DNA of 64,000 bases from assembly GCA_028713675.1 (NCBI GenBank), contig JAQTNV010000016.1, forward strand, positions 54 through 64,053. The letters run 5' to 3'. This document shows, piece by piece, positions 5,462 to 63,723 of this stretch (the first letter of the stretch is position 1; each line of letters starts with the position of its first letter). The notes under the pieces were generated by a model that was not told the DNA's origin, searched no databases, and saw only the letters and a list, made by a program, of their open reading frames with translations. This DNA is from a bacterium (lineage in GTDB: Bacteria > Desulfobacterota > JAPLJL01). A program made the translations under genes and the position numbers.

Positions 5462-5490
5462 CCTGGCCGGCTTCGCCCGTCTCGGGCAGG
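5462..5490 (+). mobile_element. 29-bp CCTGGCCG...CTCGGGCAGG micro-element inserted in a GACACY hexamer array
   Basis: C[cctggccg gcttcgcccgt ctcgggcagg]C; the same ends recur at 41157, 60089 and 63684. Confidence 0.65.
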
Positions 5491-5547
5491 CTGACACTAT
5501 TTTCCCAACCCTTCCGATCCATACTTTTATCCTTTAAACTTATTTCA

Positions 5548-5838
5548 ATGAGGAAAAACAGACCCGATCTGAATTCCGTCCCGAGAATTACCCCCGGGAT
5601 CGCTTTCCGGATCATCGAGGGGGAAGCGGTGCTGGTTAACCCCGAAAACAAGATGATCTACGTTTTAAACCACACCGGGGCTTTTGCCTGGCAGAAAATT
5701 GACGGGAAAATCAACATTAAAAAAATCGCCCAGGCCCTTTCCCTGGAATACCAGGCAGACACCTCCAAAGCTGAAAATGATCTCCTGGAGCTTTTTGAAG
5801 GGCTGTCCGATCGCGGCCTGCTTTCCTGGAATAAATAA
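5548..5838 (+). CDS. PqqD-family peptide chaperone (RiPP recognition element)
   Basis: RIIEGEAVLVNPENKMIYVLNHTGAFAWQKIDG...DLLELFEGLSDRGLL, about 96 aa. Start at MRKNRP (5548). Confidence 0.88.
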   Translation: MRKNRPDLNSVPRITPGIAFRIIEGEAVLVNPENKMIYVLNHTGAFAWQKIDGKINIKKIAQALSLEYQADTSKAENDLLELFEGLSDRGLLSWNK

Positions 5839-5894
5839 TTTTTTCTTTTTCTTCCTTTCACCCTTGAGCTTTCAACTTTGACCTTTTTTTAATC

Positions 5895-6938
5895 ATGCCC
5901 GGTTACGAAAAAGTAATGAACCAGGCCGCGCGGCGGCTGACCCCAATTTCGGTATTAATTGAGCTGACGTACCGATGTAATCTTTCCTGCCGGCATTGCT
6001 ATATACCTCCCGGCCAACTCCATCCCAAATCCCCTTCCCAAAAATCCTCACTCACTCTAAAGGAATGGGCAAATATTTTTACCCAGCTGGCCGAATCCGG
6101 AACGCTGTTTCTGACTTTTACCGGGGGAGAAACCCTGCTCTATCCGAAATTCCCGGAACTGCTGAAAATCGCCCGGGAACAACGCTTCACCTTTCGTGTT
6201 TTTACCAACGGAACCCTGATTACGAGGGAAACCGTAAAAAAACTTTCCCGTCTGCACCCTTTCGAGGTTGAAATCAGTGTCTACGCCGCCGATCCCCGCC
6301 TTCACGACCTGGTCACCGGAAGGAAAGGCTCGTTCGAGCTCACCTGGAACGCTATCAGGATGCTCAAGAATGAGGGCATCAAGGTCAATTTAAAAACCCC
6401 GGTCATGACGCTTAATCAAAAAGAGGTCAAGCCACTGCGGGATTTGGCCCGCGACCTGGACCTTCCGATTCAATTTTCCTATGTCCTCTCCCCCCGTGAC
6501 GACGGTAACTCCGCTCCTTTGAAGCTTCAGCTCAAAACCCGGGAAATCCGGGCCTGTCTGTCGCGGGAATACGATTCCGAATCCTGCCCGGACCTGGCCC
6601 CCAATCCCGGACGCAAACCGGGTGACCCGATCTGCTCGGCCGGGAGAAATTCCCTGGCGATTTCCCCCGCAGGCAAGGTTTATCCCTGCGTTCAGATCCG
6701 CCGGGAAGCCGGCGATTTGAGAAAAGAGAAATTCGCGGCAATCTGGAAGAAATCCCCGGTGCTCCGGGAAATCAGGGGAATGACCATGGCGCAGGTTCCG
6801 GAATGCCTTTCCTGCCGTGACCTGGGATTCTGCTCTTTGTGTCCGGGAATGTCCCTGATTTTATCGGACGAAGTCGAGGAACCTTACTGGCCGTCATGCG
6901 AACTGGCCCGGGCGCGGGCAAAGGGAGGGAAAAAATAA
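5895..6938 (+). CDS. Radical SAM/SPASM domain maturase
   Basis: ELTYRCNLSCRHCY, FTGGE, FTNGT; SPASM cysteines CSAGRNSLAISPAGKVYPC...CLSCRDLGFCSLCPG...C. Confidence 0.9.
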   Translation: MPGYEKVMNQAARRLTPISVLIELTYRCNLSCRHCYIPPGQLHPKSPSQKSSLTLKEWANIFTQLAESGTLFLTFTGGETLLYPKFPELLKIAREQRFTFRVFTNGTLITRETVKKLSRLHPFEVEISVYAADPRLHDLVTGRKGSFELTWNAIRMLKNEGIKVNLKTPVMTLNQKEVKPLRDLARDLDLPIQFSYVLSPRDDGNSAPLKLQLKTREIRACLSREYDSESCPDLAPNPGRKPGDPICSAGRNSLAISPAGKVYPCVQIRREAGDLRKEKFAAIWKKSPVLREIRGMTMAQVPECLSCRDLGFCSLCPGMSLILSDEVEEPYWPSCELARARAKGGKK

Positions 6939-6939
6939 T

Positions 6940-6964
6940 GTAGGGCCTGATCCCCGATCAGGCC
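6940..6964 (+). repeat. GTAG-type REP hairpin
   Basis: GTAG GGCCTGATC CCC GATCAGGCC, 9-bp perfect stem. Confidence 0.8.
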
Positions 6965-7065
6965 GGAGAACGTTAGTCACCGTCCCCTTACCAGCCTGCC
7001 GCTTTTATAAACCCGAAAAATACGATTAAATTCATTTCTCCGTCATATGCAGGCGGCCTTTTTTT

Positions 7066-7163
7066 GTAGTTTGCCGATTCATTTATCCCGACAAAGGAGG
7101 GACGTGTCCCGTCAAGGGCGGGATCGGCGGTTTTCAAAAAAGCCCGATAGATCGGGCAACTAC
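7066..7163. repeat. Inverted REP pair (REPIN-like); first REP interrupted by a 35-bp insert
   Basis: gtagtttgccgattcatttATC[7088-7122]ATCggc, then gcccgatagatcgggcaactac at 7142-7163. Confidence 0.7.
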
Positions 7164-7247
7164 ATAATATCCGAAAATATTAACTGCATTTTTCGGGATA
7201 AAAGAAAGGAAAATTTAAGAAAGAATGGTTCGTTCGGGGAACGAACC

Positions 7248-8117
7248 CTACTTCTTCAGGAGGGGAAAGCCGCGGGCCTCGCGGCCCTGCAGATAAAGCT
7301 CGGCCGAGCGCCGGGCGAGATCGCGGACCCGGCCGATATAAGCGGCCCGCTCGGTGATGCTGATTACGCCGCGGGCGTTCAGGATATTGAAGACGTGAGA
7401 ACATTTCAAACAGTGGTCGTAGGCCGGAAGCGCCAGCCCCTTTTCCAACAAGGCCTTGCCCTCGGATTCGAAGATCTTGAAAAGCTCCTGCAGTTTCCCG
7501 CCGTCCGCCTCTTCGAAGTTATACTTGGAAAACTCCACCTCGTCCTGGTGATGCATTTCCCCGTAGGTCACCCCGTGGGCCCAGACAATATCGAAAATGC
7601 TGTTTACTCCCTGCAGATACATCGCGATTCTCTCAAGGCCGTAAGTCAGTTCCACCGGGATGGGATCCAGGTTGATCCCCCCGCTCTGCTGAAAATAGGT
7701 GAACTGCGTGACTTCCATCCCGTCGAGCCAGACTTCCCAGCCCACCCCCCAGGCCCCCAGCGTGGGAGATTCCCAGTCATCCTCGACAAACCGGAGATCG
7801 TGATCCTCCGGTTTAATCCCCAATGACCTCAGGCTGTTCAGGTAAAGATCCTGGACCTCGAGCGGTGAAGGCTTCAGAATGACCTGGAACTGGTAATAAT
7901 GCTGGAGGCGGTTGGGATTCTCTCCGTATCTGCCGTCGGTGGGGCGCCGGCAAGGTTCCACGAAGGCGACCTTCCAGGGCTCCGGGCCCAGGACCCGCAG
8001 AAAAGTCGAGGGATGGAAGGTCCCCGCCCCTTTTTCCAGGTCGTAGGGCTGGACGATCAGGCAGCCCTGGTCTTTCCAGAAATTCTGGAGATGAAGTATC
8101 AAGTCCTGAAAATTCAC
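7248..8117 (-). CDS. glyQ: Glycine--tRNA ligase alpha subunit
   Basis: [66 protein letters not shown]. Confidence 0.98.
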
Positions 8118-8244
8118 AAGTTCGAATCCTCTTCGATAATAAACATAAGCAAAAACGCAGTTTGAAAATTATAACTTTGCCTTGATAGTGTCAATTGCCC
8201 GATTCAAAACCGAGGAAGAAAGCCGATCCGTCACTGTTTCTGAT

Positions 8245-10146
8245 TTACCAGACAGGAAACCCTAGCGAAAAAACCACCAGGCAATATTCGTGAAGAACGG
8301 GGAGGACGAATTTGATTCTCTCCCCTTCCTCACTGTAGTTAAGCACACCCCCCGCCCCTCCCGGTTCCATCCACTCCAGTCCATACGAGCCGGACGGAGG
8401 CAGCCGGAGGGAAATGTTTATCCCTTCCTGCGGGACAAATCCAGACCCCTGGGAGTAGTTATAGTTGATCAGGTGGAGAAAGATTCGATCACTCGACCAG
8501 CCGGCTACGATCCCGATTTCCCGGGGAGCATCGGTCACGATCAAAGGATCGGAAACGGCGGCGGTAACCTGGTTCACGAACTCAGCTCGGGCGTCGGGAA
8601 ATTTGCTGTCCTTGCGATCCCGGAGCGACAGGTCCTTCATTTCCACAACCTTCCCGCCCTGGCTCCGGTAGTCGTTAATCACCCCGGTTTCCGCTTCGGA
8701 AAAGGAAAGGGGCGACGGCAAGATCACCGTCTTGAATTTTTCCAGCCCTAAAAGCGACAGGCCCCGTCCCGGGACGAAATCCTCATCCCCGACATAAACC
8801 ACCTCGAAAGGTATGTGCTCCTCTTCCAGGATCTCGGCGGCAGAAAGAAAAGCGAGATGAGAGGCTTCGGCGATCGACCAGGGGGTGGCATAGCCATAGT
8901 CGAAAAATTCATTCAAAACAGTGCGCTGATGATAGACCAGGCCGACTTCGGCGAGCAGTTCCGTCCCGAGGACCAGGTCCTGGTTTTCCTGAAAGAACTT
9001 GGTATAGGGCCTGATAATCTCCGGGGGAGCGGTCAGCCCGCCGGAAACCGTTTCCTGCCCTCCTCCGAAAACGTAGGCCTGATAAGGAATCAGCATTCCC
9101 TCCCCCGCGCTGGCGGCTTCCGCCATCCAATGCGTGAAGATATTCCAATCCATACTGTTTTCCTGGAAATCCAGCAGGACTCGGATATCCGGAAAGATAA
9201 AAGCCGGTTTTTTCGGATCCATCGCCCGGGCCAGGAGGTGCACCCCCAGGTGCTTCCCCAGGGGATTTAATTCGAGAGGATACTCATAGACCAGGAAATC
9301 CAGGTCAGGGATAAAAACCTGGCGGTGAGCGCTTAAAAGCACGGTATTAGCGGTGAAAGGAACCTGGCGTCCGGCATAATTGTTGGCGTGGCCGACAAGT
9401 CCTTTCAGCTGCTTTTGGCGGGCTTTTAACTGGAATCGGACAAATTCCCGGCGAAGATCAGGATTGGGGTCATCTTCCAGTTTCGACGCCCCCTTATCCT
9501 GGAGATAACTTTTATAATTAAATTCATCAAGCTGACCGATCCCCAGGCGAAAATTGATTTCAGGCGGCGAAAAATTGTCTTTCAGATACTGCCGGAAACC
9601 ATCCATACAGCTCGGGCAAAACCCGGCCAGGTAAAGATGCCCCGCGATCCCCTCCACTTCGTCGATGTCAATCGCGTCAGCTTCCCCGTGGAGATGTTCT
9701 TCCACCCGCGCGTTGAGAAAATCATTCCATTTGGAATTGTTATTGCAGGGAAGATAGGGGGAATCGGGAAAAATCCACAAAGCATAGGCCTTGGACCCGG
9801 CAAAAGTCTCGCAGGCGGTTTCGCTCAGCAGCTCGGGGTCATCGATAACACCGGGACTCCCCTGCATGGTGGCGAAGTTCGAGGCCACGATGATTCCCTT
9901 CCGATGGAGTTCCCGGACATATTGATGTTCTTCCGCGTTGAATCCCCCGTGATAGACCGACCAGGCCAGCCCAGTGCCTCCCACTGCTTCGATATATTCC
10001 AATGGCGGACGGCCGTAAATGAAAAAATTCATCCCGTTCAGCCAATCCCGGCCGGGATGGTATGATTTTCCGCCCGGGCAGGAATAAAACAGGAGAGAAG
10101 AACCGGCAATTAAGCAGCCTGCAATCAATTTATTCAGATTTTCCAC
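8245..10146 (-). CDS. Putative lipoprotein with a glycoside-hydrolase-like barrel and a class-I GATase-like trimerisation domain
   Basis: N-terminal hydrophobic stretch ending in LLFYSC; DAIDIDE, FCPSCMDGFRQYL, HIPFEVVY...FKTVILP, IFLHLINYNY resemble GH42-like architecture. Confidence 0.55.
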   Translation of the reverse strand: MENLNKLIAGCLIAGSSLLFYSCPGGKSYHPGRDWLNGMNFFIYGRPPLEYIEAVGGTGLAWSVYHGGFNAEEHQYVRELHRKGIIVASNFATMQGSPGVIDDPELLSETACETFAGSKAYALWIFPDSPYLPCNNNSKWNDFLNARVEEHLHGEADAIDIDEVEGIAGHLYLAGFCPSCMDGFRQYLKDNFSPPEINFRLGIGQLDEFNYKSYLQDKGASKLEDDPNPDLRREFVRFQLKARQKQLKGLVGHANNYAGRQVPFTANTVLLSAHRQVFIPDLDFLVYEYPLELNPLGKHLGVHLLARAMDPKKPAFIFPDIRVLLDFQENSMDWNIFTHWMAEAASAGEGMLIPYQAYVFGGGQETVSGGLTAPPEIIRPYTKFFQENQDLVLGTELLAEVGLVYHQRTVLNEFFDYGYATPWSIAEASHLAFLSAAEILEEEHIPFEVVYVGDEDFVPGRGLSLLGLEKFKTVILPSPLSFSEAETGVINDYRSQGGKVVEMKDLSLRDRKDSKFPDARAEFVNQVTAAVSDPLIVTDAPREIGIVAGWSSDRIFLHLINYNYSQGSGFVPQEGINISLRLPPSGSYGLEWMEPGGAGGVLNYSEEGERIKFVLPVLHEYCLVVFSLGFPVW

Positions 10147-10245
10147 AGGATATATCTCTTCTGCCCCAAATGATGCTTTTATTTATTGAAAAGGCATTAT
10201 AATTATAAAGATTTGTAAATTAATTTAATATCAAGGAGAGAAACC

Positions 10246-10800
10246 ATGAAGATCCATTTCTTCCAGCAATTTCCGGGAATCGAGCCGGACAAACTCAATG
10301 AAATCTGGTCGGACCCGGAAGTAATCGTCCGGATCGTCAAGGCCCTCCCCAATATCCAGGAGAGGGAGATCCTCGAGGAAAAACAGGACGAGAAGTTTCT
10401 CCGCCGGAAAGTCCGTTACCTGGCCAAGGGCCCGATTCCGGCCTTTGCCGAAAAAGTCCTGAGACCCGACATGTTATCCTGGGTCGAGGAAACTGTTTTT
10501 GACAAGAAAAACATGGTCTATCAGGTAAAATGCGTTCCGCATTTTTTCGCCGACCGGGTTGAAAACGAACTTACCATCCGGCTTCTTCCCGATGGAAAAG
10601 GCGGAACCCTGAGGGTTATCGAAGGCGTACTCAATTTGAAAGTCCCCTTCGTGGTCCGGGGCATGGCGGAGCATCTGGTCAACCGGTACCTGCAGGACAA
10701 TACCGAAAAGGAATATCAGGTCCTGAAATTCGAGGTGGAAAATTACCTGAGCAAGAAAGCCTCGGCCCGGAAAAAAACCAAGGAAAGCCGGAAAGCCTGA
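10246..10800 (+). CDS. DUF2505-like (START/SRPBCC-fold) protein
   Basis: AGGAG RBS; IPAFAEKVLRPDMLSWVEETVFD...G.TLRVIEG.L.LKVPFV pattern. Confidence 0.7.
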   Translation: MKIHFFQQFPGIEPDKLNEIWSDPEVIVRIVKALPNIQEREILEEKQDEKFLRRKVRYLAKGPIPAFAEKVLRPDMLSWVEETVFDKKNMVYQVKCVPHFFADRVENELTIRLLPDGKGGTLRVIEGVLNLKVPFVVRGMAEHLVNRYLQDNTEKEYQVLKFEVENYLSKKASARKKTKESRKA

Positions 10801-10844
10801 AGACCTCCTTCAATTGACAGAACACAATTGCTAGTGGAAAAACA

Positions 10845-11912
10845 TTGATAAAAACAGCACGCATAATTATTCTTTCCGCTTTTTTATTCCTGCCTTTTAT
10901 CTTCTCTTCGGCATATTCCGCGGAGATCCCGGCTTCCCCCGCCGTTTACTGGGCCCAGACCCAGGATGGCTGGGAGCTGGCGATTCACCGGTATCAACCA
11001 GAACCCCCGCGGGAAAACAGCGTACCGGTGGTCATGTTTAACGGCCTGGGGGCCAATCGGTACAACTTCGAAAGCGATGACCGGCACAGCATGGCCCGCT
11101 TTCTGGCCCGCCACGGGCTGGATGTCTGGATCGGTGAATGCCGCGGGATGGGCTTGTCCCGCCGTTCCGACGGGAAAAACCCCGATTATCTCTGGTCTTT
11201 CGAAGATTTCATCCTCACCGATATTCCCGCGATCCTGGAAAAGGTGAAGACTGAAACCCATGCCCGGCAGCTGGATTGGGTCGGCCACAGCATGGGGGGA
11301 ATGGAACTTTACGCCTACCTGGAGAGAGGCGACGCCAGCTTGATCCGCCGGGGAGTGGCAATCGCTTCCCCGGTATCGTTTCGCGTTCCCAATGACATCC
11401 TGGCTTCACAGGGAAAATTGTCCTTCTTTTTGAAAATTATCGACCGGATCCCGGTCAAGCAGCTAATCAAGGTTTTTCTTCTCTTCCATATGGAGTTCGG
11501 CTCCACCTTCAGTATCATCCAGTTCAACCAGGACAACATGGACCGTGATTTTATCCGTCAGCTCGCCCCTAAAGCTGTCGAAAACCTGCCTGCCAGGCTC
11601 CTCCTGCAGTTTTCCGACGCCATCAAGGAGGATAACTTTTCCGCTCACACCGATAAATACGATTACTCCGCTAATTTATCCCGGATAAAAAATCCGGTCC
11701 TGCTCGTGGCGGGGTCGCTCGACAACCTGGTCTCGCCCGCCGGAGTTCTGGAAGTCTATAACGGGATTTCTTCTCCGCGGAAGGAAATGGTGGTGGCGGG
11801 ACGGGGCAACGGCTTTCACCGGGATTACGGGCACATCGATCTTCTGCTCGGGGAAAACGCGCGCGAGGAAATCTTTCCCCTGGTCCTGGATTGGCTAGTA
11901 AAGCAGCCCTGA
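10845..11912 (+). CDS. Secreted alpha/beta hydrolase (lipase/PHA-synthase-like)
   Basis: Signal peptide; GHSMGG nucleophile elbow; GSLD acid; YGHIDLL His. TTG start. Confidence 0.88.
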   Translation: MIKTARIIILSAFLFLPFIFSSAYSAEIPASPAVYWAQTQDGWELAIHRYQPEPPRENSVPVVMFNGLGANRYNFESDDRHSMARFLARHGLDVWIGECRGMGLSRRSDGKNPDYLWSFEDFILTDIPAILEKVKTETHARQLDWVGHSMGGMELYAYLERGDASLIRRGVAIASPVSFRVPNDILASQGKLSFFLKIIDRIPVKQLIKVFLLFHMEFGSTFSIIQFNQDNMDRDFIRQLAPKAVENLPARLLLQFSDAIKEDNFSAHTDKYDYSANLSRIKNPVLLVAGSLDNLVSPAGVLEVYNGISSPRKEMVVAGRGNGFHRDYGHIDLLLGENAREEIFPLVLDWLVKQP

Positions 11913-12109
11913 CTTCGCCCGGCAAAGCAGGCGGATTGCTCCGCCTTGTTAAGGGCTACGTCGGGCTCGCAGAGCTCGTAAGCAGTAGCCGGAAACCGGA
12001 TACCGGTTAATTCAAACAAAATAAAAAGCTAAGTTCTTGATTTTTCTTCTTCTGACCGGTTACCTGCCCGTTTTTTGACTTTCACTCGTCAATCGTCAAT
12101 CTAAAATCG

Positions 12110-13264: not shown

Positions 13265-13285
13265 GATTCCCCCCTTTTAAAATTT

Positions 13286-13446
13286 CGATTCTAGTTTCGA
13301 GTTTCTAGTTTGACGTTAAACCATTTTTTTCCGATTATTTCAACTAGAAACCAGAAAACCCAAACTCAAAACTTATTATATTTTCTGTTCTCTGGTCACT
13401 GGTTTTGATTTTTAACTCGAAACTAGAGACTGAAAACTCGAAACTG
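13286..13446. repeat. Inverted heptamer arrays (TTTCGAG... followed by ...AAACTAG/AAACTCG)
   Basis: ctagtttcgagtttctagttt, then aactagaaaccagaaaacccaaactcaaaact, then taactcgaaactagagactgaaaactcgaaact. Confidence 0.85.
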
Positions 13447-13448
13447 TT

Positions 13449-14072: not shown

Positions 14073-14138
14073 AGTATGTTTGCCTGAATCCGTAAAGGAT
14101 GAGGGAGAATTTCTCTTTTGATCCGTGGGACTAGGGGA

Positions 14139-21935: not shown

Positions 21936-21957
21936 CTTGTCCTCGAGCAAAGCGAAG
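21936..21957 (-). mobile_element. 22-bp CTTCG...GGACAAG micro-element (variant)
   Basis: Minus strand tc[cttcgctttgctcgaggacaag]gc, lying between the inverted arms gcaatagc/gctattgc. Confidence 0.5.
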
Positions 21958-33930: not shown

Positions 33931-34400
33931 AAAGAGCACAGCGCAAAAGGCATCCTCCTACGCAAAGAAGCTTCGGAGGACAGATCGAGCAAAGCACATG
34001 GGCAGTAGCTTTACCATTGACGATTGCAAATTGACGATCTCATAAAACACATTGACGATTTACGATTGACGATTGTAGATTAAGGGAAAGAATCATCTGA
34101 ATCATCTGAATCATCTGAATCATCTGAATCATCTGAATCATCTGCTATTCTTTATTCATAATTCATCGTTGTTATTATTCTTGGTTTTAATCCGTCAATC
34201 TACAATCTGCAATCGTCATTTCTTCTTTGGTTTTCACTCGTCAATCGTCAAGTTTTGCAAGGCTTCCCTCGGCCACAATGCCTCGGGATCTAATCGAAAA
34301 GACTTGCCAGACATTCCGTTTCTCTTGCTTTTCATTCGTCAATCCTTCGACTTCGCTCAGGACAGGTCGTAAATCGTCAATCGTCAATTCTTTTTCATTC
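33931..34400. repeat. Large intergenic repeat block with nested micro-elements
   Basis: TTGACGA arrays and inverted TCGTCAA arrays; AATCATCTG x6 at 34091-34144; inserts at 33954-33983 and 34345-34366; composite REP at 34257-34312. Confidence 0.9.
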
Positions 34401-39721: not shown

Positions 39722-41302
39722 TCACATCGCTTGTTCTTTCGCGTTTTCTTCCTCGAACTTTACCCCTGAGGACTTCATGATCCGGCGGAAATTGCTGCGG
39801 TCGAGCTCGGCCTTCCGGGCGGCCTCGGACATATTTCCGTCCGCCTGCGAAAGTAATCGGCCGAAATACACCTGGTGAAACCTGTCCAAGGCCTGGGACT
39901 TGGCTTCCTTGTAGCCCAGATTGACCAGTTCGCCCCACTCATCGTCTTTCCGCAGGGGCTTGAGCTCACGGCTCAGGATCGCGGGCGGAAGATCGGAGGG
40001 ATGAATCGTTTCCCCTTTTTGCACGATTACCGCGTGCTCAATCGCGCTCGCCAGCTCCCGAACGTTGCCGGGCCAGGGGTAATCCAGGATGATTTTCATC
40101 GCTTCGGGGGATATCTGCTTAAGTTCGGGACCGATTTTCCGGCAGGAGCGGGTTAAGAAATGACGGGTAAGAATGGGGATATCATCGACCCTTTCCCGGA
40201 GGGGGGGGAGATGAATGGTAACCACGCTCAACCGGTAGAAAAGGTCCTCCCGGAATTTCTTTTCCGCGACGGCCCGGGAAAGGTCCTTGTTACTGGCGGC
40301 GATAACCCGGACATCCACCTTGATGGATTCGTTCCCGCCAACCCGCCGGATTTCCCCTTCTTGGAGAGTCCGGAGCAGTTTGGCCTGGACCGTAAATGGT
40401 ATCTCGGCCACCTCATCCAGGAAAATCGTGCCCCCGTTAGCCGCCTCGAAAAATCCGGCCCGGCGGGTGTTGGCCCCGGTGAACGAGCCCTTTTCGTGGC
40501 CGAAAAGCTCGCTCTCGAAAAGGCTCTCAGTAATAGCGGAACAATTAAAGGGAATGAAGGGTTTGCTCTTTCTCGGGCTCAGGGAATGCAGGGCCTTGGC
40601 TACCAGCTCCTTACCCGTCCCGCTCTCACCCTGGATCAGAGCGGTGGTATCGGTGGCCGCCAGCCTCTCGGTCAACTGGTAGACCGGAAGCATTTTAGCG
40701 CTCTGCCCGATCAGGCCGGCGAATGATTCCGGCTTGCCCGCCTCCGCTTCGAGTTTCTGTGTTTTGAAGACCAGGGCGCGGTGCTCCAGGGCTTTTTCCA
40801 CCGAGATGTTCACTTTCTCGATCGGGTCGAAAGGCTTGGTCAGGAAATCGTAAGCCCCCAGGCGCACCGCCTCGACCGCCTGTTCCATTGTCCCGAAACC
40901 GGTCATCATGATCACCTCGATTTCGGGATACTGCAGTCGGACCCTCCGGAGCACCTCCATTCCCGAGGGTCCTGGCATTTTCAGATCAAGCAGGATCACG
41001 GAGACCCGGTCGGGATCGGCTTCCAAATATTTCAGGGCCTCGTCCCCCCTCCGGGCCAGTGTCACCTCGTGCCCGGATGAGGAAAGTACCAGGTTGATCA
41101 CCTTTAAAATGGCTTCCTCGTCGTCCACAACCAGAATGACAGGTTTCGAGTTTCGGCCTGCCCGAGCCGATGGCTCGTGTCGGCCAGGGGTTTCTGGTTT
41201 CGAGTTCAACTCGAGCACAGCCGAGAGGCTGGCCTTTTCCCTGTTGGTCTGTCCAACTGCTGATCTGTTGGACTGCTGGTCTTTAGTCATTTTTTCCATC
41301 AT
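39722..41302 (-). CDS. Sigma-54-dependent REC-AAA+-HTH activator (NtrC/AtoC family)
   Basis: GESGTGKELVA, ESELFGHEKGSFTGA, FLDEV, FREDLFYRL, WPGNVREL. Confidence 0.95.
   Translation of the reverse strand: MMEKMTKDQQSNRSAVGQTNREKASLSAVLELNSKPETPGRHEPSARAGRNSKPVILVVDDEEAILKVINLVLSSSGHEVTLARRGDEALKYLEADPDRVSVILLDLKMPGPSGMEVLRRVRLQYPEIEVIMMTGFGTMEQAVEAVRLGAYDFLTKPFDPIEKVNISVEKALEHRALVFKTQKLEAEAGKPESFAGLIGQSAKMLPVYQLTERLAATDTTALIQGESGTGKELVAKALHSLSPRKSKPFIPFNCSAITESLFESELFGHEKGSFTGANTRRAGFFEAANGGTIFLDEVAEIPFTVQAKLLRTLQEGEIRRVGGNESIKVDVRVIAASNKDLSRAVAEKKFREDLFYRLSVVTIHLPPLRERVDDIPILTRHFLTRSCRKIGPELKQISPEAMKIILDYPWPGNVRELASAIEHAVIVQKGETIHPSDLPPAILSRELKPLRKDDEWGELVNLGYKEAKSQALDRFHQVYFGRLLSQADGNMSEAARKAELDRSNFRRIMKSSGVKFEEENAKEQAM
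41157..41188 (-). mobile_element. 32-bp CCTGGCCG...CTCGGGCAGG micro-element inside the activator 5' coding region
   Basis: Minus strand aaacC[cctggccg acacgagccatcgg ctcgggcagg]Ccgaaac; 32+1 = 33 nt, which keeps the frame. Confidence 0.65.
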
Positions 41303-46304: not shown

Positions 46305-46632
46305 GCAAGGAGCAGGGAGCATGGCGCATAGGGTTTACCCCAAAACCAGAAACCTGGATTCCTGCTTTCCTTCGATCATACTCAGGACAAGTCGCAGTAA
46401 TGACGTTATGATTTTTCATTCGTCTTTTATTGTTTGGTTTTCACTCCGCATATCTCAGCAAGGTTGAAGCCTTGCCCTACATTTCCCCTTGGACCCTCGA
46501 ACCCTATTTTCTTTCTTCGCAGCCTAAAGGCTGCGGCTACCTTGGACTCTATTTTTTCTCTGCTCTTACCCTTGAACCCTGGAACCCTGTTTTTTTTCCA
46601 TTCCGCAATCCGCATTCCGCAATCCGCAATTA
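46305..46632. repeat. Intergenic block: heptamer arrays, hairpin with 22-bp insert, GTAG REPs
   Basis: ctggattcctgcttTC[46370-46391]TCgcag; gcaaggttgaagccttgccctac at 46458-46480; gcagcctaaaggctgcggctac at 46519-46540; tccgcaa array. Confidence 0.85.
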
Positions 46633-57700: not shown

Positions 57701-57840
57701 TCAGTGATGTTTAATTTTAGTGCGCTTAAATCCCGGGGGGGCTTCTTCATTTTTACGGCCGTTGACTTCACCAAACGCGGCTGCCTACGAGGCCTGCCTT
57801 TCTTTATTTTTTTTCTGTTTTTTTTCTTTTTTTCCGGCAT
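54766..57840 (-). CDS. Cytoplasmic multi-PAS histidine kinase
   Basis: About 6 PAS domains; NIAHEIKNPL; NLLQNAIE; GMGLAI. Start MPEKKKK at 57840. Confidence 0.93.
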   Translation of the reverse strand: MPEKKKKNRKKIKKGRPRRQPRLVKSTAVKMKKPPRDLSALKLNITEQKNIAERLRLSEERYRFIFNNSPDFICINDVNGNFLDANPAVLKILGVSLEELKKKSYLDYFAGDNQEELIRLADELRQGHPIYGLNLKTRNSQGKIIEMEINAVPIFEDGRVVSVLSLARDIGERKRAENSLRQSEEIYKAILDTSIDGFWIDDLQGNIQEANDACSRMLGYSRSELLRMKISDIVVEEKPEETGARIRKIIATGGDRFETKLRHKDGKIIDFEISVNFMDISGGRLFVFSRDITERKRAEEILKENENKLVQAQDIAKLGNWDWDVEGNKLTWSETVYQMFGLGREIPLTFDGIVALIHPDDRNKNNSFINLLLEKEDHAEIQFRLLLPDGTIKHINQHAVAYRNQSSHPYRIVGTMQDITDLKQAEDKLRLSEEKYRNFFHNAQVGLYRTRITDGQVIECNERFAGMLGYKSREECLRDYSVARHFNDLDDQRRLLRKLKESGEITGYEARGVKADGSPIWVNYSVKMIPGTEHIEGAVVDITELKRLQEEKKVITERWSRFSCAATDLFYIFDQDLNLVDFNRALSPELAERFSRREAIGKKLTEVSPTIRDSDMLDKYLDVLKTGKPFHRSRQKISVSMGEFRYVCIDIFKVGDGLGMILHDVTEQIQAEEMIKNASTAWRITFDSIPDMIMVQDLNYRILRANQALADFLGLSFPEIIGQQCFRLIHKTDAPPEYCRQSRCISEGKSCNYMVRSERLQRDYLITTTPMFNAANKCYGVIHVTRDITEEKKLQKRLKESERMAAIGEIAGNIAHEIKNPLFAISSGIEILHDHLKLGGAQKETLEIILRETIRMDYLVRQLLDYGRHRALNEIAFAPVDMREVVDEVASLNSGLMKVNGIKVEKKMPPDLPPVMVEKGEMIQVFINLLQNAIEVSGKGDVIEIEARADEKRKTLIVSMKDMGPGIPKEMKDKIFEIFFTTKKGSYGMGLAISRRIILDHGGDIRVESEPGKGAKFIVELPIK

Positions 57841-57859
57841 TGCTCTCTCTCTAAATTTC

Positions 57860-58190
57860 TCTGGTCTATGAATGGCATAGGGCAAAGGGCATGGCGCAAA
57901 GAGCAGGGAGCATGGCGCAGGGAGCATGGCGCATATGATTTAACCCCAAACCAGAAACCTGGATTCCTGCTTTCCTTCGACCATACTCATGACAAGTCGC
58001 AGGAATAACTTTATAATTTTTCATTCGTCAGATTTTTGGGGCTCACTCGTCATTCGTCAATCGTCACTTCTTCTTCGGTTTTCATTCGTCATTCGTCAAT
58101 TCTTTTTTGTTTTTCATTCCGCAATCTACAATCCGCAATCCGCAATTCTTTCTAACTCGAAACTCGAAACTAGAGACTCGAAACTAGTAT
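57860..58190. repeat. Intergenic repeat block, paralogous to 46305-46420
   Basis: gggagcatggcgca arrays, ctggattcctgcttTC[57975-57996]TCgcagg, tcgtcat/tcgtcaa, tccgcaa and aaactcg arrays. Confidence 0.85.
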
Positions 58191-58277
58191 TACCCTGCCG
58201 ATTTCATAAAACTGGCAGATATAGGTGCCACAGGGAATATTGTCGACGATGCTTATCCCGAATTTTCTCATTTTCAT
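58170..58277 (-). pseudogene. Truncated N-terminus of a MEDS sensory domain
   Basis: MKMRKFGISIVDNIPCGTYICQFYE resembles the MEDS start R.SGI..IG..PWGTHFCQFY, then runs into a heptamer array and stops. Confidence 0.6.
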
Positions 58278-58350
58278 TTTCCAGAACTGATTGTAGTTGA
58301 TTATTTTATTCATTGTATTCCGAATAGATAATTTATCAATTAAAAAAAAG

Positions 58351-58376
58351 GGGAGCCGGCTGGGCGGCTCCCCTAC
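58351..58376 (-). repeat. GTAG-type REP hairpin
   Basis: GGGAGCCG GCTGGG CGGCTCCC followed by CTAC. Confidence 0.75.
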
Positions 58377-58411
58377 GAAAGAAACATTCTTTCTAATAAC
58401 TGACCCTCGCA

Positions 58412-59713
58412 TTACCTCGGCTCGTCGGCGACCGTGATCTCGATCGATCCGGAATCGGCTCCGCCTTTGCCGTCGTTCACTACCACCTGAATGGTGTATA
58501 CTCCGGCGGCATCCGGGGCCTGCCATTCGATCACGCTCTCATCAGAAAGAGAAAGCATCCCGCCGTCGGTTTTCCAATAATAGGTCAGATAATCCTGATC
58601 CGGATCGGCGGCCTGAACCGCGACTTTCACGGTAGCTCCCAGGCCAACCTCGCTTTCGAAGGTGACGGAATCGATCACGGGAGGCATGTTATCAACCCGA
58701 AAATCGCCGACCTGGACCGTCGGTCCGTCGTTTTCGTCAACCGTGACGGTGATTGATTCCATCAGGTTACCGTTCTCGTCCACGAAAATACCCAGGGCCT
58801 GGCTGGCAAACCGCAGTTGGTATTCCCCCGGCAAAATGAAGGGGATCCGGAAGTTACCTTCGCGGTCAACGGTACCCGGCAGACCGGAAGTCTGGTTGGA
58901 GTTTTTCAGGAAAACCAGGGTCGGATGGGACTCGCCCAGAAGATTAACCCCGGAGAGCGGGGTTTCTCCGTCACGGAAGAAAATCCGGCCGGTCACAGTA
59001 TTGTAGGTATGATCCACCTGGGGAACCATCTGGACGGGATATTCGAGCGTCAGGGTCTGTCCGGTCTGAACCTCAAGCCCGGGAATCGTCACATCCTCAA
59101 AACCGGGGGCATATATCCGAAGCGTGACTTGGCCGGGAACCATTCCGAATACCGAGAAGTCCCCGTTTATATTAACGTAGCTGACCGGGGAGCGGAACCC
59201 GCATTCACTCTCGGCGTAGATTACGGCTTCTTGGAGCGGGGCGCCTGAAACAGCATTCGTCACCCGTCCCTGGATAGTGCCGTTAACATCAACCTTGCAC
59301 TCAATCTGATAATCAACCTGGTTCCATTTTCCTCCATCCCACTGAAAGCCGACCTTCAAGATTCCGATCATGGGGCCGTTGATCTCGTCATTGTAGACAA
59401 AAGCATAAATAATATTTCCGGCGGGGGGATCCACATCATAATCGGTTTCGGTTTTCATCTCACTGATCCAGAAAGTAATATTGGCGCCGGTATCAGTATT
59501 GACCATTGGATTGATCGAAGCTGATTGGGCTCCCAGGAGATTCTGTTCCGAACAGGTCCCAGCCTGGGCCGCACGGGCCAAAAGGCTCTGAATCTCGACA
59601 TTTTCCGGGGCCGCCAACTTTAAATCGGCCATATTCACACCGTTGTTTCCGCAGCCGACCGCGGTCAGGCCGAACAGTACCGCCGCCACGAAGAATTCTT
59701 TCAGGTTTTTCAT
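58412..59713 (-). CDS. Lipoprotein with carboxypeptidase-regulatory-like and Ig/PKD-like domains
   Basis: GAGGAG RBS; lipobox LTAVGC; GTIQGRVTNAVSGAPL; NMPPVIDSV...ADPDQDYLTYYW...YTIQVVVNDGKGG. Confidence 0.85.
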   Translation of the reverse strand: MKNLKEFFVAAVLFGLTAVGCGNNGVNMADLKLAAPENVEIQSLLARAAQAGTCSEQNLLGAQSASINPMVNTDTGANITFWISEMKTETDYDVDPPAGNIIYAFVYNDEINGPMIGILKVGFQWDGGKWNQVDYQIECKVDVNGTIQGRVTNAVSGAPLQEAVIYAESECGFRSPVSYVNINGDFSVFGMVPGQVTLRIYAPGFEDVTIPGLEVQTGQTLTLEYPVQMVPQVDHTYNTVTGRIFFRDGETPLSGVNLLGESHPTLVFLKNSNQTSGLPGTVDREGNFRIPFILPGEYQLRFASQALGIFVDENGNLMESITVTVDENDGPTVQVGDFRVDNMPPVIDSVTFESEVGLGATVKVAVQAADPDQDYLTYYWKTDGGMLSLSDESVIEWQAPDAAGVYTIQVVVNDGKGGADSGSIEITVADEPR

Positions 59714-59784
59714 CTTTGCTTCTCCTCTTTTTGTTTGATGTTTTTTCATCCTTTTAAACGCTTTCGCTGCCGCATTATTAGAAA

Positions 59785-59928
59785 TGCATGAACCGTGCCA
59801 CGGTTTGAAAATACCGCGATATCTTTGGTTTTACCGTCGGTGCGGATGCAATATTGGTACCCTGTTCAGGTCCAATCCCGCGGGTTGATTTTGTGGTTCT
59901 TTTTGACCCTGAGGGGTGGAACAAACCG
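59785..59928 (-). promoter_or_regulatory. Sigma-54 promoter with enhancer site
   Basis: TGGCACGGTTCATGCA at 59800-59785; TGGTT-CTTTTT-GACCC at 59894-59909, with a weaker site 19 bp further on. Confidence 0.72.
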
Positions 59929-60003
59929 GGGCCAATTAAATTGCGGATTTTTGATTGCGGATTGCGGATTGAAATTCAAAGCCATGGAACCGGGGGTCCG
60001 AGG
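59883..60003 (+). repeat. 121-bp direct repeat, copy 1
   Basis: Near-identical to 62623-62743. Confidence 0.92.
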
Positions 60004-60076
60004 GAAACCTGCGTGTTTCAGGTTTAAAGTTTCAAGTCAAAAGAAAAGGAGCGGCATTTGACGGCCGCCCGATAAA

Positions 60077-60132
60077 GGGAGCCCGCGGCCTGCCCGAGCC
60101 GGGCAAATCCGGCCAGGGAGGGGCTCCCCTAC
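60077..60132 (-). repeat. GTAG REP carrying a 29-bp CCTG...CAGG micro-element (60089-60117)
   Basis: Minus strand gtaggggagcccctC[cctggccg gatttgcccgg ctcgggcagg]Ccgcgggctccc. Confidence 0.75.
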
Positions 60133-60203
60133 TCCAGTCTCTGATTTTGATTTTGAACCCGAAACCCGAAACTAGAAACCCGAAACCATTGAAAGCAACG
60201 CTT

Positions 60204-61199
60204 TCAATGAACTGGTTTGGGAGCTGCCGCCGGCTTCCGACAAGTCGAGCAAACAAAATTGCCCCGCAGCTCGCGGTTCCCGTTTTCCCCCTTAACAGTC
60301 AGGTCCAGAACCATGGGTTTTCCGCAATCGGTGCATCGGTAACCCTGGTCGATACCCAGGGTCTGGGCCAAGCTGGGGGCATCGAGCACGGTTTCGATGA
60401 TTTCGATCCGGAAATGCCGCTCCGGGGTCTTCTTCAATAAGGTCTGGACCTTCGAAATCATCTCATCAAGGTTGGCTTTTCCCTTCACCAGGAAATCATT
60501 GGCCCCCATGAGCATGGCTTTTTTAACCTCTTCGGGCTGGTCATGAGCCGAAACCACGAGGATCGGGATCCTGGTGGTGAGTGAATCCGCCCTGATCTTC
60601 CAGATCGCCTCGTAGCCTTTCATCTTGGGAAGCATCAGATCCATGATGATGAGATCGGGTTTATGCTTTTTCAGGATTTCCATCCCTTCCTCCCCATCGG
60701 CGGCGATCCGGACGATAAAATTTCCCTGTTCCAGAACTTTCCGGTAGAGCTCCGAAAAAAAACTGTCGTCTTCGAAAACCAGGATTTCCGGGGTTTTCTT
60801 TTCTTCCGATTCCTCCACTCCCCGGCCCTGGTAGAGAAGCTCCTTGATCTTGGCGACCACTTCATTCAGCCTCGATTTCCCCTTCACCAGGTAGGCATCG
60901 GCTCCCATACCCTTTACTTTCTGGATGTCCTCAAACTGGTCCCGGGCCGAGAGAACCAGGATCGGCACCCGGGCGAACCGCGCGTCCGCCCGGATTCGAT
61001 GAATGGCTTCCACCCCGTTCATCCCGGGCATCATCAGATCCATGAGAATCAGGTCGGGCCGGGACGTTTCCAGGGACTGCAGACACTCTTCCCCTCCGGT
61101 AACCATCCGTACCTCTAATTTTTCCATATCAAATTTCCTCTGATAAATTTCGCGGGTATACTGGTTATCTTCCACCATCAGGATTCTCGCCATTTTCAT
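60204..61199 (-). CDS. Tandem REC-REC response regulator with C-terminal CxxC...CxxC zinc-ribbon-like motif
   Basis: LMDLMMP and IMDLMLP phosphoacceptors; CTDC...CSTC. Confidence 0.9.
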   Translation of the reverse strand: MKMARILMVEDNQYTREIYQRKFDMEKLEVRMVTGGEECLQSLETSRPDLILMDLMMPGMNGVEAIHRIRADARFARVPILVLSARDQFEDIQKVKGMGADAYLVKGKSRLNEVVAKIKELLYQGRGVEESEEKKTPEILVFEDDSFFSELYRKVLEQGNFIVRIAADGEEGMEILKKHKPDLIIMDLMLPKMKGYEAIWKIRADSLTTRIPILVVSAHDQPEEVKKAMLMGANDFLVKGKANLDEMISKVQTLLKKTPERHFRIEIIETVLDAPSLAQTLGIDQGYRCTDCGKPMVLDLTVKGENGNRELRGNFVCSTCRKPAAAPKPVH

Positions 61200-61205
61200 T
61201 CTCCT

Positions 61206-62489
61206 TTAGTTTAGGGGAGGAGCCGGGGAACGGGACGGGAGATCCCCGGTGTTTTCCGCCCGGTTTTCCGCGCTGGAAAAAATAAAATCCACCGGCAGTT
61301 CTACGGTAAACGTGCTGCCGGCCCCGGGCCGGCTCTCCACACTGATCCGTCCATTCAATAGCCGGACATAGTCTTTCACGATGGCCAGTCCCAGCCCCAA
61401 CCCTTTTTCCGCCTGTTCCGCCTGGTTATCAACCCGGTAAAATTTATTGAAAATTAACGGCAATTCCTTCTCCGCGATCCCGATCCCGGTATCGGAGACC
61501 GCGGCCACCACCCCGCTGGAATCCAGGCTGGGTGCGGCCAGTATCTCGATCCCGCCTTTGCGGGTGTATTTGACCGCGTTGGAGAGAAGATTGATTAATA
61601 TATATTTAACCCGGTTCGGATCGGTCGTAATCAAGGGGGTTTTCTCATTATATTTAATTTCGATCCCGAGCCCCTTCAGCTGCGCCAGGGGTTGGACCAG
61701 GGGGAGCACTTCCTGGATAAGGCTTTTCAGATTGATCTCGGCCAGGTCGCTCTTTTCGATCTTGCCTTGTTCCAGGCGGGAGGAATGTAAAAGGTAATCC
61801 AGCATTTCCCCGATTTCATTGGTATTGATATCCATTTTTCCCAGAACTTGGCCGACTTCCTCCGAGATTTCGCCGAACGCGTTTTCCCGGAGCAGGGAGA
61901 TGTACCCCGAGATGGCATTAACCGGGGTACGGACCTCGTGAGAAATGATGTTTAGAAGCTCCTTCTGAAACCCGACCGCGATCTCCAGTCTTTGATTGGC
62001 GAGCCTGAAGTCCAGGGTCCGTTCCTCCACCGATTCTTCCAGCCGGGCGTTGATTTCCTTCAGGGAGAGATTTTTTTCCTCAATCAGCCGCAAAAGTTCG
62101 CGGTTGTGGCTAACCAGTTCGTAATTTTTCCAGGCGCCCCTGACCGAACTTCTCAGATCCGCGTTTTCCCAGGGTTTGATGATAAATTTATCCACCCTGC
62201 CCCGGTTGACCGCCTGCTCGACAATCCCAAAATCCTGGTTGCCGCTCATGACCATCCGGACCGTATCGGGGGAAATGGCTTTGATTTTCTCGAGAAGCTC
62301 CACCCCGTTAGCCCCGTTCATGGTGTAGTCGGTGATAATCAGGAAAATCGGTGTCCCGTCGAACCGGGCGACCGCCTCGTCCGGGCCGGCGGCCGTGATA
62401 ATTTCATAGCCGTCGGCAGCCAGGGTCCGGCCCAGGACTTTCAGGATCTGCGGATCGTCGTCAACTATAAGAATGATCGGGTTACCCAT
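61206..62489 (-). CDS. REC-histidine kinase
   Basis: LIVDDD, ITDYTM, KPW; ISHEVRTP; NLLSNAVKY; GLGLGL. Confidence 0.93.
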   Translation of the reverse strand: MGNPIILIVDDDPQILKVLGRTLAADGYEIITAAGPDEAVARFDGTPIFLIITDYTMNGANGVELLEKIKAISPDTVRMVMSGNQDFGIVEQAVNRGRVDKFIIKPWENADLRSSVRGAWKNYELVSHNRELLRLIEEKNLSLKEINARLEESVEERTLDFRLANQRLEIAVGFQKELLNIISHEVRTPVNAISGYISLLRENAFGEISEEVGQVLGKMDINTNEIGEMLDYLLHSSRLEQGKIEKSDLAEINLKSLIQEVLPLVQPLAQLKGLGIEIKYNEKTPLITTDPNRVKYILINLLSNAVKYTRKGGIEILAAPSLDSSGVVAAVSDTGIGIAEKELPLIFNKFYRVDNQAEQAEKGLGLGLAIVKDYVRLLNGRISVESRPGAGSTFTVELPVDFIFSSAENRAENTGDLPSRSPAPPLN

Positions 62490-62524
62490 GATTCTCTCCT
62501 TTTTTTCTCCTCATTTATACAGGA

Positions 62525-62668
62525 AGCAAGAAGAGGGCCAAGGAGCGGAAATAACGCGGAATATTTGTATTCGCCGTCGGCGCTGCAGAAACATTGGTTC
62601 CTCATCCGGGTACGATTCTTCTGGTTGATTTTGTGGTTCTTTTTGACCCTGAGGGATGAAATATACCG
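62525..62668 (-). promoter_or_regulatory. Sigma-54 promoter with enhancer site
   Basis: TGGCCCTCTTCTTGCT at 62540-62525; TGGTT-CTTTTT-GACCC at 62634-62649, the same 94-bp spacing as at 59.8 kb. Confidence 0.72.
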
Positions 62669-62743
62669 GGGCTAATTAAATTGCGGATTTTTGATTGCGG
62701 ATTGCGGATTGAAAGTCAAAGCCATGGAACCGGGGGGCCGAGG
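62623..62743 (+). repeat. 121-bp direct repeat, copy 2
   Basis: Near-identical to 59883-60003. Confidence 0.92.
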
Positions 62744-62773
62744 TTAGCCTCAGGCTTAAGACTGCATAATCAA

Positions 62774-62829
62774 GTAGGGCAAGGCTTCTCGATCAGATCC
62801 CGAAGCATTGTGGCCGAGGGAAGCCTTGC
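62774..62829 (+). repeat. 56-bp composite GTAG REP
   Basis: gtagggcaaggcttctcgatcagatcccgaagcattgtggccgagggaagccttgc; reverse complement of the 2891-2946 family. Confidence 0.85.
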
Positions 62830-62927
62830 AAATCAACAAAAATGGTCGAAGGAAGGCTGCGGCCACCTTCGGACCCTAGGCCCCCTGGGACCCTTTTTAC
62901 TGGTCCAGGTATGCTATATTTGGGGCT

Positions 62928-63602
62928 ATGGAGCAGGTAATTCAGGACATCGCCTTGATGCTGGTGCCGATGCTGTTCGCGGTTTCCTTTCACGAAGCCG
63001 CCCACGGGTATGTCGCCGACCGTCTGGGCGACCCCACCGCCCGCCTGGCCGGACGCCTGACCCTGAACCCTTTCAAACACCTGGACCTGGTGGGAACCAT
63101 CGTATTTGTCGTAACCCGCATGATCGGCTGGGCCAAGCCCGTCCCGGTCAATCCTTTCAATTTGCGCGATCCCAAGCGGGACATGATGTGGGTTTCGCTG
63201 GCCGGCCCGGGATCCAACCTGGTCCTCGCCATTATCTCCGCCATGCTGCTCCGCCTGCTGGCCTGGTATGATCCCTCCCTCCCTCTCCAAACCCAGTTTC
63301 CCAAGTTCGCTTCCAGTTCGTCTTTTTTCCTGGTTCCCCTTTTCCTGATGATTCAAATCAGCGTCGTTATGAATATCGCCCTGGCGGTTTTTAACTGCCT
63401 GCCCATTCCCCCGCTCGACGGGAGCAAGATTCTCATGGGTCTCCTGCCCCTCGATAAAGCCCAGGCCTTCGCCCGGATCGAGCCTTACGGTTTTATCATC
63501 CTGCTCGGTCTTATTATATTTCCAGGTCTTCTAGGGATTCCTAGCATAGTAGATATTTTAATTAGCCCACTCATTAATTTAGTGATCAGATTGTTACTTT
63601 AG
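62928..63602 (+). CDS. Site-2 protease (M50 family)
   Basis: HEAAH, AGPGSN, FNCLPIPPLDG. Confidence 0.95.
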   Translation: MEQVIQDIALMLVPMLFAVSFHEAAHGYVADRLGDPTARLAGRLTLNPFKHLDLVGTIVFVVTRMIGWAKPVPVNPFNLRDPKRDMMWVSLAGPGSNLVLAIISAMLLRLLAWYDPSLPLQTQFPKFASSSSFFLVPLFLMIQISVVMNIALAVFNCLPIPPLDGSKILMGLLPLDKAQAFARIEPYGFIILLGLIIFPGLLGIPSIVDILISPLINLVIRLLL

Positions 63603-63606
63603 CGAC

Positions 63607-63723
63607 AGTTTCGAGTTTCTAGTTTCGGGTTTCGGGTTAAACCCTATGCTCTTTACGCTCTGCTCTGACACCGACACCGGCACCCTGGCCGGCACAAGTC
63701 GTCAGCTCGGGCAGGCTGACACT
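63607..63723. repeat. Heptamer/hexamer arrays with a 32-bp CCTG...CAGG micro-element (63684-63715)
   Basis: tttcgagtttctagtttcgggtttcGGGTTAAACCCtatgctc; gacaccgacaccggcaC[cctggccg gcacaagtcgtcag ctcgggcagg]Ctgacact. Confidence 0.8.

Follow-up and report, generated by a model that had tools for sequence, protein, structure and literature searches.

How can a DNA unit of about thirty nucleotides settle in one repeat after another, and what moves it? This question is raised by a 64,000-nucleotide stretch from an uncultured landfill or sediment bacterium (positions 54 to 64,053 of contig JAQTNV010000016.1, assembly GCA_028713675.1; the whole stretch is hereafter called the window), in which a micro-element with invariant ends and a variable centre lies in four other repeats. 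To our knowledge, some 30 nt is the lower size limit of mobile DNA, the small dispersed repeats (SDRs) of cyanobacteria are the only published class of this size, and we know of no mechanism for SDRs and of no relatives of theirs outside cyanobacteria. Our analysis shows that the four repeats are genuine copies of an ultra-small hairpin element, recently inserted in other repeats. In all likelihood, they belong to a family of non-autonomous hairpin insertions that target a pyrimidine-C dinucleotide (YC) and would be moved in trans, with a clade of small GIY-YIG nucleases as the best candidate partner.

Four intact copies of a hairpin element

A preliminary description of this DNA had reported four copies with identical ends and centres of 11 or 14 nt, and all of them were recovered at the positions given there as exact matches of the pattern CCTGGCCG-N(9-20)-CTCGGGCAGG, which occurs exactly 4 times in the window versus 0.00 times in 100 dinucleotide-preserving shuffles (Table 1). 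The 18 terminal bases are identical across all four copies (18/18), whereas copies of equal length show 3 differences in their 11-nt centres and 5 in their 14-nt centres (27-36%), which indicates that the ends of the element are constrained and its centre is not. Allowing for up to two mismatches in the 18 terminal bases yielded one extra, doubtful site within a coding region, and reversed and complement-only control patterns at the same tolerance had 0 matches in the window; thus, all four copies in the window are intact, and no decayed ones accompany them.

The ends form an imperfect terminal inverted repeat, as had been proposed, with CCTGGCCG facing CGGGCAGG and one G.G mismatch, and in most family members this repeat reaches 9 bp (CCTGGCCG(A) / (T)CGGGCAGG). 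Upon folding, each copy gave a single hairpin with the stem built from both ends and the G.G mismatch conserved. A selected stem within the centre was considered and rejected, the stability being no better than with shuffled centres (65 distinct sequences, mean z of -0.27). Across the family the element measures 20-42 nt, with modes at 29, 31 and 32 nt. We found no Rfam family matching the element or the window, and no tRNA genes in the window. Pfam scans of the 48 window open reading frames (ORFs) revealed no transposase, recombinase, reverse transcriptase, HUH or GIY-YIG domain, which bears out the earlier statement that the window lacks a transposase.

Each of the four copies has a C on either side, and the hosts that had been assigned to them (two hexamer arrays, a heptamer array in a coding sequence and the loop of a GTAG-tagged repetitive extragenic palindromic (REP) hairpin) proved correct. 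In all four, removal of the element together with one C regains the host, again as first described: the hexamer phase for copies 1 and 4, the heptamer AACCCGA for copy 2 and the REP hairpin GTAG-GGGAGCCC-CTCCGC-GGGCTCCC for copy 3. Copies 1 and 4 lie in the same phase of their two hexamer arrays. Element-free counterparts are also present in the window, namely an array similar to the host of copy 1 at 2693-2716 (-) and REP hairpins at 58370, 1113, 1019 and 25041. The REP host of copy 3 is found downstream of a response-regulator gene (60204-61199). Copy 2 and its C make up 33 nt that are in frame in the gene P0001 and are translated as PGRHEPSARAG.

Table 1. Element copies in the window, their hosts and the gene that contains copy 2.
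Feature	Position	Strand	Description
Element copy 1	5462..5490	+	29 nt, 11-nt centre GCTTCGCCCGT; C at 5461 and 5491
Element copy 2	41157..41188	-	32 nt, 14-nt centre ACACGAGCCATCGG
Element copy 3	60089..60117	-	29 nt, 11-nt centre GATTTGCCCGG
Element copy 4	63684..63715	+	32 nt, 14-nt centre GCACAAGTCGTCAG
Host of copy 1	5437..5499	+	CYRACA hexamer array, between divergent radical-SAM genes
Host of copy 2	41142..41215	-	AAACYCG-type heptamer array, contributing to the N-terminal extension of the P0001 sigma-54 activator
Host of copy 3	60077..60132	-	GTAG-tagged REP hairpin, GTAG-GGGAGCCC-loop-GGGCTCCC
Host of copy 4	63665..63724	+	CYGRCA hexamer array, between M50 peptidase gene and next + strand gene
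Sigma-54-dependent response regulator gene (P0001)	39722..41302	-	copy 2 in variable N-terminal linker

Empty sites in co-occurring strains

The window organism was found in three landfill metagenome runs (X1-X3), where strains with and without individual copies could be compared. For copy 4, an exact empty site was identified in contigs of X1 (depth 3.8) and X3 (a 423-nt contig), belonging to a strain with 11 differences in 278 nt (~96% identical). Its allele reads CTGACACCGACACCGGCG^CTGACACGAAATAGG (CTGACACCGACACCGGCG^CTGACACG) versus ...CCGGCA-C-[32 nt]-C-TGACACTAAAATAGG in the window; exactly the element and one C are missing and the hexamer array is intact. The filled allele is present in X1 as well, with 0 differences. 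Copy 1 is missing with its array kept from a contig of X2 (11 differences in 282 nt, a ~96% identical strain) and from a 2.6-kb contig of run X4, which represents a ~92% identical relative; since the more distant relative is also without copy 1, gain in the window lineage is the simpler reading. Copy 2 is missing from three ~89% identical contigs (L001-L003), which have a different heptamer array in its place and keep the reading frame. The copies had been presented as independent insertions of a mobile unit, and the empty sites of copies 1 and 4 together with the absence of copy 2 from relatives agree with this. Segmental duplication of a composite unit, named at that time as a possible refutation, is excluded because the arrays occur element-free at the same loci and because copies 1 and 4 differ in their centres.

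Several observations in the same regions concern the hosts themselves. The N-terminal extension of the sigma-54 activator (41090-41302, -) is made of heptamer-array DNA whose array type varies among relatives. The reading frame and the first ~30 residues of this protein are conserved across the differing arrays; the array DNA is thus translated. Intergenic regions and some genes turn over fast between ~90% identical strains: a gene with CarboxypepD_reg and PKD domains (58412-59749, -), together with its upstream spacer that contains copy 3, is missing from the otherwise syntenic relative L249. The window has a lone gene for a four-helix 23S_rRNA_IVP protein (PF05635; 54256-54645, -), and L249 has two (1732-2112 and 3318-3671) at different intergenic spots, one of which fills the spacer that holds the arrays and copy 4 in the window.

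Insertion 3' of a pyrimidine-C

Across 77 distinct sites of the family, position -1 is C in 77 and position +1 is C in 76, with the reservation that flanking Cs were imposed in the metagenome scan from which the flanks of many of these sites derive; among the unconstrained copies (including the four of the window and seven genuine ones from the genome scan) the 5' C is found in all and the 3' C in all but one (L200). Position -2 is T in 54 of the 77 sites (70%) and C in 19, hence T or C in 95%. Random flanks had been named beforehand as evidence against mobility, and the flanks are non-random. In arrays, REP loops, T-loops and self-nests alike, the element and one C are added; insertion takes place 3' of YC and adds the element plus one C. 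The previously suggested 1-bp duplication of C thus stands as far as one C is gained per insertion, but it is indistinguishable from insertion of an element that itself ends in C. When hairpins with arms of 5 bp or more are counted, 22% of the insertion points fall within a loop, versus 12% of control positions, so that the target rule is YC, mostly TC, and not "repeats"; from the preference for repeats or hairpins proposed at first, the bias towards loops remains, but repeats as such are not the rule.

Out of 76 classified sites, 16 have a member of the family as host, either another copy or the 20-nt palindromic relative CCTGGCYGAGCTCRGCCAGG. Such self-nests always follow ...CTC or ...GTC and always carry one extra C; in L173 there are three nesting levels at CTC^GGGCAGG, and in L007 a REP contains an element that in turn contains another. 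The loops of GTAG REP hairpins serve as hosts in six cases, all of them co-oriented with the tag, and the REP host type of copy 3 also holds other element subtypes in L160 and L007. Further hosts are hairpins resembling the NTS repeats that accompany Ssn nucleases, T-loops of tRNAs, and plain spacers. Two of the NTS/SRM-like hairpin hosts (GTCATTCC...GGAATC; L144 1160-1590 and L231 380-520) adjoin a different, Ssn-like GIY-YIG gene, and there the element is on the antisense strand at GGATTC^CGC.

Two more micro-elements were noticed in the window. One is CTTCG-N10-GGACARG (22 nt), found at 21936-21957 (-), 34345-34366 (+) and 46370-46391 (+), i.e. in 3 copies versus 0.18 expected, all of them directly 3' of ...TC; one of these copies lies in a CGTCAAT heptamer array, and its excision leaves an extra TC. 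The other involves a REP hairpin of the form GTAG-GGCAAGGC-TTCA-GCCTTGC, which is empty at three positions (42258, 46469 and 50076, -) and filled at two (2935-2946, - and 62774-62785, +). The cargo of the filled hairpins is 33 nt long (TCGATCAGATCCCGAAGCATTGTGGCCGAGGGA and a variant) and follows TTC in the loop, making it a third micro-element family with the TC rule.

Spread of the family

About 80 further copies were identified in unrelated contigs of 33-60% G+C, with recurring centres (ACACGAGYGTCAG, ACCCGAGTCGT, TGGCCCGAGGCCCCGG) amid unrelated flanks. A scan of the genome collection, using the pattern without a flank constraint, gave ~8 genuine copies among the 120 matches listed, the rest of those listed being chance matches in high-G+C genomes; the genuine ones among them come from metagenome-assembled genomes labelled Planctomycetota, Verrucomicrobiota, Ignavibacteria and "Proteobacteria" (Lake Pavin sediment). 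The metagenome scan, with flanking Cs in the pattern, returned 120 loci, about half of which are genuine as curated by G+C content, context and recurring centres. Copies linked to GIY-YIG genes occur in Limisphaerales and Zixibacteria. In addition, each of three landfill or sediment metagenomes contains 23-25 contigs with a copy at least 88% like copy 2, and their similarity to the window starts and stops no more than 1-3 bases from the element ends (41154/41156 and 41189/41190). Three viral contigs carry genuine copies within heptamer arrays. BLAST against 72,556 plasmids gave chance-level matches and no genuine copy, and a literature search with the sequence strings of the element gave no relevant match.

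Among IMG/VR viral contigs, the element (including a 20-nt short form) was noted in L245 (1782-1816), L246 (1428-1462) and L252 (9386-9405). The 20-nt palindrome was not retained as a marker of viral copies, 7 of its 8 matches in viral contigs being chance occurrences in coding regions. A second in-frame copy was seen in L200 (6383-6414, -), where the element and its C (33 nt) are translated as PLAVSERQLGQA within a glycosyltransferase-like ORF and the surrounding linker sequence is repeat-derived. With regard to crude ORFs, 22 copies of the larger set are in sense and 16 in antisense orientation; an orientation bias relative to genes was not supported with these ORFs.

A small GIY-YIG nuclease gene next to the element

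A full-length locus with the same ends, which the preliminary description had proposed to look for, did not turn up in 1.5 Mb of loci, and an autonomous parent was rejected, the long pairs of ends being chance half-sites in coding DNA. Clustering of ORFs within 3 kb of genuine copies revealed a single recurrent small family, a GIY-YIG protein of ~83 amino acids (aa). Its profile picked out 5 ORFs from the element-bearing loci (407 kb) and 0 from the loci with chance hits (1.25 Mb); the latter make a weak control because they differ taxonomically from the former. Genes of this clade sit at the 3' ends of tRNA or transfer-messenger RNA (tmRNA) genes and their products carry PF01541 only; among proteins of solved structure, BH0048 and EF2693 (both UPF0213) come nearest to them, and NCBIfam has no family for the 83-aa proteins.

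In the loci L206 and L234, the tmRNA gene is followed by the GIY-YIG gene, which is in turn followed or bracketed by duplicated 3' fragments of the tmRNA. The T-loop of these fragments reads GGCGGGAATC[element]CGAACCCGC on the antisense strand, and the intact tmRNA of the same locus has an empty loop. As an independent test, homologues were fetched by protein sequence alone (67-80% identity; L259, L260, L261, L262 and L268), and all five loci have the element in the T-loop of the adjoining tRNA or tmRNA fragment. The order is tmRNA, element-bearing fragment, gene and a second element-bearing fragment in L259 (Limisphaerales) and L268, and tmRNA, gene and element-bearing fragment in L260 and L261 (Zixibacteria). 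In L262, tRNA-Leu and the gene are followed by GCGGGTTCG[element]GAATCCCGCC, from which removal of the element plus one G gives the native T-arm. In total, the element is present in T-arm copies flanking the 83-aa gene clade in 7 of 7 loci, and empty and filled paralogous T-loops exist side by side within single loci.

Homologues with at most 53% identity are likewise found beside tRNA genes with partial tRNA copies; in L263 and L265 the T-loop position of the element is taken by another hairpin, of 25 nt, whereas the copies of L264 have other hairpins and those of L267 none. In L263 (2753-2900), L265 (2753-2900) and L264 (2700-2990), genes for GIY-YIG proteins of 83-87 aa lie just after tRNA genes (Arg, Cys), and the inserts of the partial tRNA copies include caagttttcttttccgaaggaaaaa, which occupies the T-loop, and a hairpin of 33 nt that occupies the anticodon loop.

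Proposed mechanism and its alternatives

In our reading, the mobile unit is a fixed terminal stem of 9 positions (CCTGGCCGA/TCGGGCAGG) with a conserved G.G mismatch around a freely varying centre. It enters immediately 3' of YC, probably in single-stranded form, and yields C-element-C; the YC is TC in most cases and often lies in an exposed loop. The element is presumed to move in trans; that its targets are often hairpin-loop bases and that the unit is itself a hairpin suggest mobilisation in trans on single-stranded DNA. As for the enzyme, our preferred lead, put forward tentatively, is the mini GIY-YIG nuclease associated with tRNA and tmRNA genes, acting together with host ligation or repair. 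On the model of the Ssn/NTS pair, the protein would bind the hairpin and introduce a nick at TC in single-stranded DNA, whereupon host ligation or repair would finish the insertion. A bolder version, which we regard as rather doubtful, is a hitherto undescribed "nick and paste" route without any transposase, in which the ~83-aa GIY-YIG protein, a passenger of tRNA and tmRNA T-arms, would recognise the hairpin CCTGGCCG...CGGGCAGG in single-stranded DNA. Nicks would be made both in exposed loops, at TC, and at the two ends of the element itself, and host ligation or repair would join hairpins of 20-40 nt into them. If this were so, one machinery would write several very small repeat families, as might be expected from the TC rule common to three unrelated micro-elements of the window; it would perhaps shape the landscape of heptamer arrays and would explain the cyanobacterial SDRs.

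A number of points weigh against the proposal as a whole. The empty sites rest on Logan contigs and not on raw reads; the X2 junction at copy 1 has a short side of only 29 nt, and the empty allele there has T where the C target is expected (C-element-C in the window). Copy 3 has no orthologous spacer for comparison, L249 having neither the spacer nor the neighbouring gene. The nuclease, for its part, is a candidate whose action on the element is predicted. The L206-type gene (at least 80% nucleotide identity) was not found in the runs X1-X4 or in the viral contigs, and the window itself encodes no GIY-YIG domain. Common descent may be all that the T-arm cassettes with the element reflect, T-loops may be no more than hot targets, and the nuclease clade is confounded with the host organism. 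Furthermore, a GIY-YIG nuclease cannot paste DNA alone because it forms no covalent intermediate.

A rival enzyme is a single-strand transposase of the HUH/Y1 type (IS200/IS605 or REP-associated tyrosine transposase (RAYT) kind), which would mobilise the element by "peel and paste": with cuts on the 3' side of both the flanking YC and the element's terminal C, it would re-join the hairpin to single-stranded DNA at another YC with no true duplication. A hairpin element that always stands 3' of a short motif, with at most one base "duplicated" and often in exposed hairpin loops, is what such an enzyme would leave, and many GTAG REP hairpins are dispersed across the window, where the two further micro-elements are 3' of TC as well. 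Nevertheless, the element is without the GTAG tag of REPs and forms one hairpin where IS200/IS605 ends have two subterminal ones, none of the ~80 copies adjoins a Y1 gene, and the orientation flips within 4 kb (copies 3 and 4), which leaves no strict strand bias; we consider this route unlikely. Less probable still is an RNA intermediate of the kind proposed for Nostoc SDRs, with a transcribed hairpin copied back to DNA. This route is reportedly the one favoured by the SDR authors (Elhai and colleagues in 2008), and all four window copies are sense to the local or downstream gene; however, the larger set is mixed (22 versus 16, as given above for crude ORFs), no reverse transcriptase is encoded in the window or near the copies, and no RNA run was found to contain the organism.

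That the copies are immobile, either as parts of composite repeats spread by segmental duplication or gene conversion or as a motif selected by the host (a terminator or a protein-binding site), is in our estimation highly improbable. Copies 1 and 4 do share their flanks (...CCGRCAC[element]CTGACACTA), the same REP host bears an element in the window, L160 and L007, and copy 3 is located within a terminator-like hairpin. Yet both hexamer arrays are element-free at the same loci in close strains, the shared hosts bear different element subtypes, Rfam gives no match, and copies are found in frame in genes, self-nested and in unrelated contexts across several phyla. We retain a mobile hairpin, presumably moved in trans, with the GIY-YIG clade as the lead to its enzyme.

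Comparison with known systems

Ssn proteins, which are single-domain GIY-YIG nucleases of cd10448, bind to a hairpin repeat and restrict their cleavage to single-stranded DNA; in the NTS-ssnA-NTS layout, hairpin repeats of 20-50 nt flank the nuclease gene on one or both sides, and the NTS/SRM repeats occur in many copies genome-wide and across phyla (Chenal et al. 2025, Nat Commun 16:2388, PMC11893778). The element resembles this arrangement in that hairpins of 20-50 nt flank a GIY-YIG gene in L206, L234, L259, L260/L261, L262 and L268, and NTS-like hairpins are among its own hosts. It differs in that the SRM consensus HGTCWY...RNCYNB was matched by 0 of 82 element copies on either strand (an NTS control does match), that its linked gene is at tRNA or tmRNA 3' ends, where duplicated tRNA fragments hold the element in their T-loops, and that NTS repeats have not been described as inserting precisely or nesting in themselves. 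A hairpin-guided single-strand nuclease might also be of use as a tool, as proposed for Ssn.

With REPs and REPINs mobilised by RAYTs (Bertels and Rainey 2011, PMC3116915), the element has in common that these are short, extragenic, multi-copy hairpins, presumably moved in trans as single-stranded DNA. Unlike them, the element has no GTAG tag and starts with CCTG, moves as a single unit and not as a doublet, inserts into the loops of REPs, so that GTAG hairpins are its hosts, and is found inside genes as well. No RAYT gene was present near element copies in the clustering of ORFs within 3 kb. A REP/RAYT system is also said to have been described by Ton-Hoang and co-workers in 2012.

Miniature inverted-repeat transposable elements (MITEs) and the Rickettsia palindromic elements are non-autonomous, have terminal inverted repeats and are tolerated in frame. 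The element has terminal inverted repeats too, but it is 3-10 times smaller and duplicates at most 1 nt, compared to at least 2 bp for MITEs, and the 1.5 Mb of loci contain no parent insertion sequence that shares its ends. The palindrome-associated transposable elements (PATEs), minimal derivatives of the IS200/IS605 kind, insert 3' of a short fixed target with no duplication, which fits the element if the 3' C belongs to it and YC is what it targets, and a 1-nt duplication fits equally well; in contrast to PATEs, the element makes one hairpin from both ends and has no separate subterminal hairpins. By defining features, the element is not a MITE, REP, PATE or SRM.

The closest described kind is the SDRs of Nostoc punctiforme and relatives (SDR1-8), reportedly 21-27 nt long and limited to a subgroup of cyanobacteria, for which Elhai and co-workers are said to have favoured an RNA route, and next to which the element is placed by description and not by sequence. 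As SDRs are said to be, it is some tens of nucleotides long, hairpin-forming and dispersed in many copies, it is embedded in tandem heptamer and other repeats and nested in itself, and it is present or absent among close relatives, a sign of recent mobility. It differs from them in a range that goes beyond cyanobacteria to viral contigs and to genomes carrying the labels of several phyla, in being slightly longer (20-42 versus 21-27 nt), and in its 9-bp imperfect terminal repeat, YC target, one-C signature and linked GIY-YIG clade. Elements of this sort yield in-frame protein inserts of 10-11 residues, break assembly unitigs and seed false ORFs. To the SDR-like elements the present family adds sharply defined ends, a simple target rule, insertions seen between co-occurring strains, carriage across phyla and by viruses, and a concrete candidate enzyme that can be put to the test; in this way, the question of how SDRs move becomes testable.

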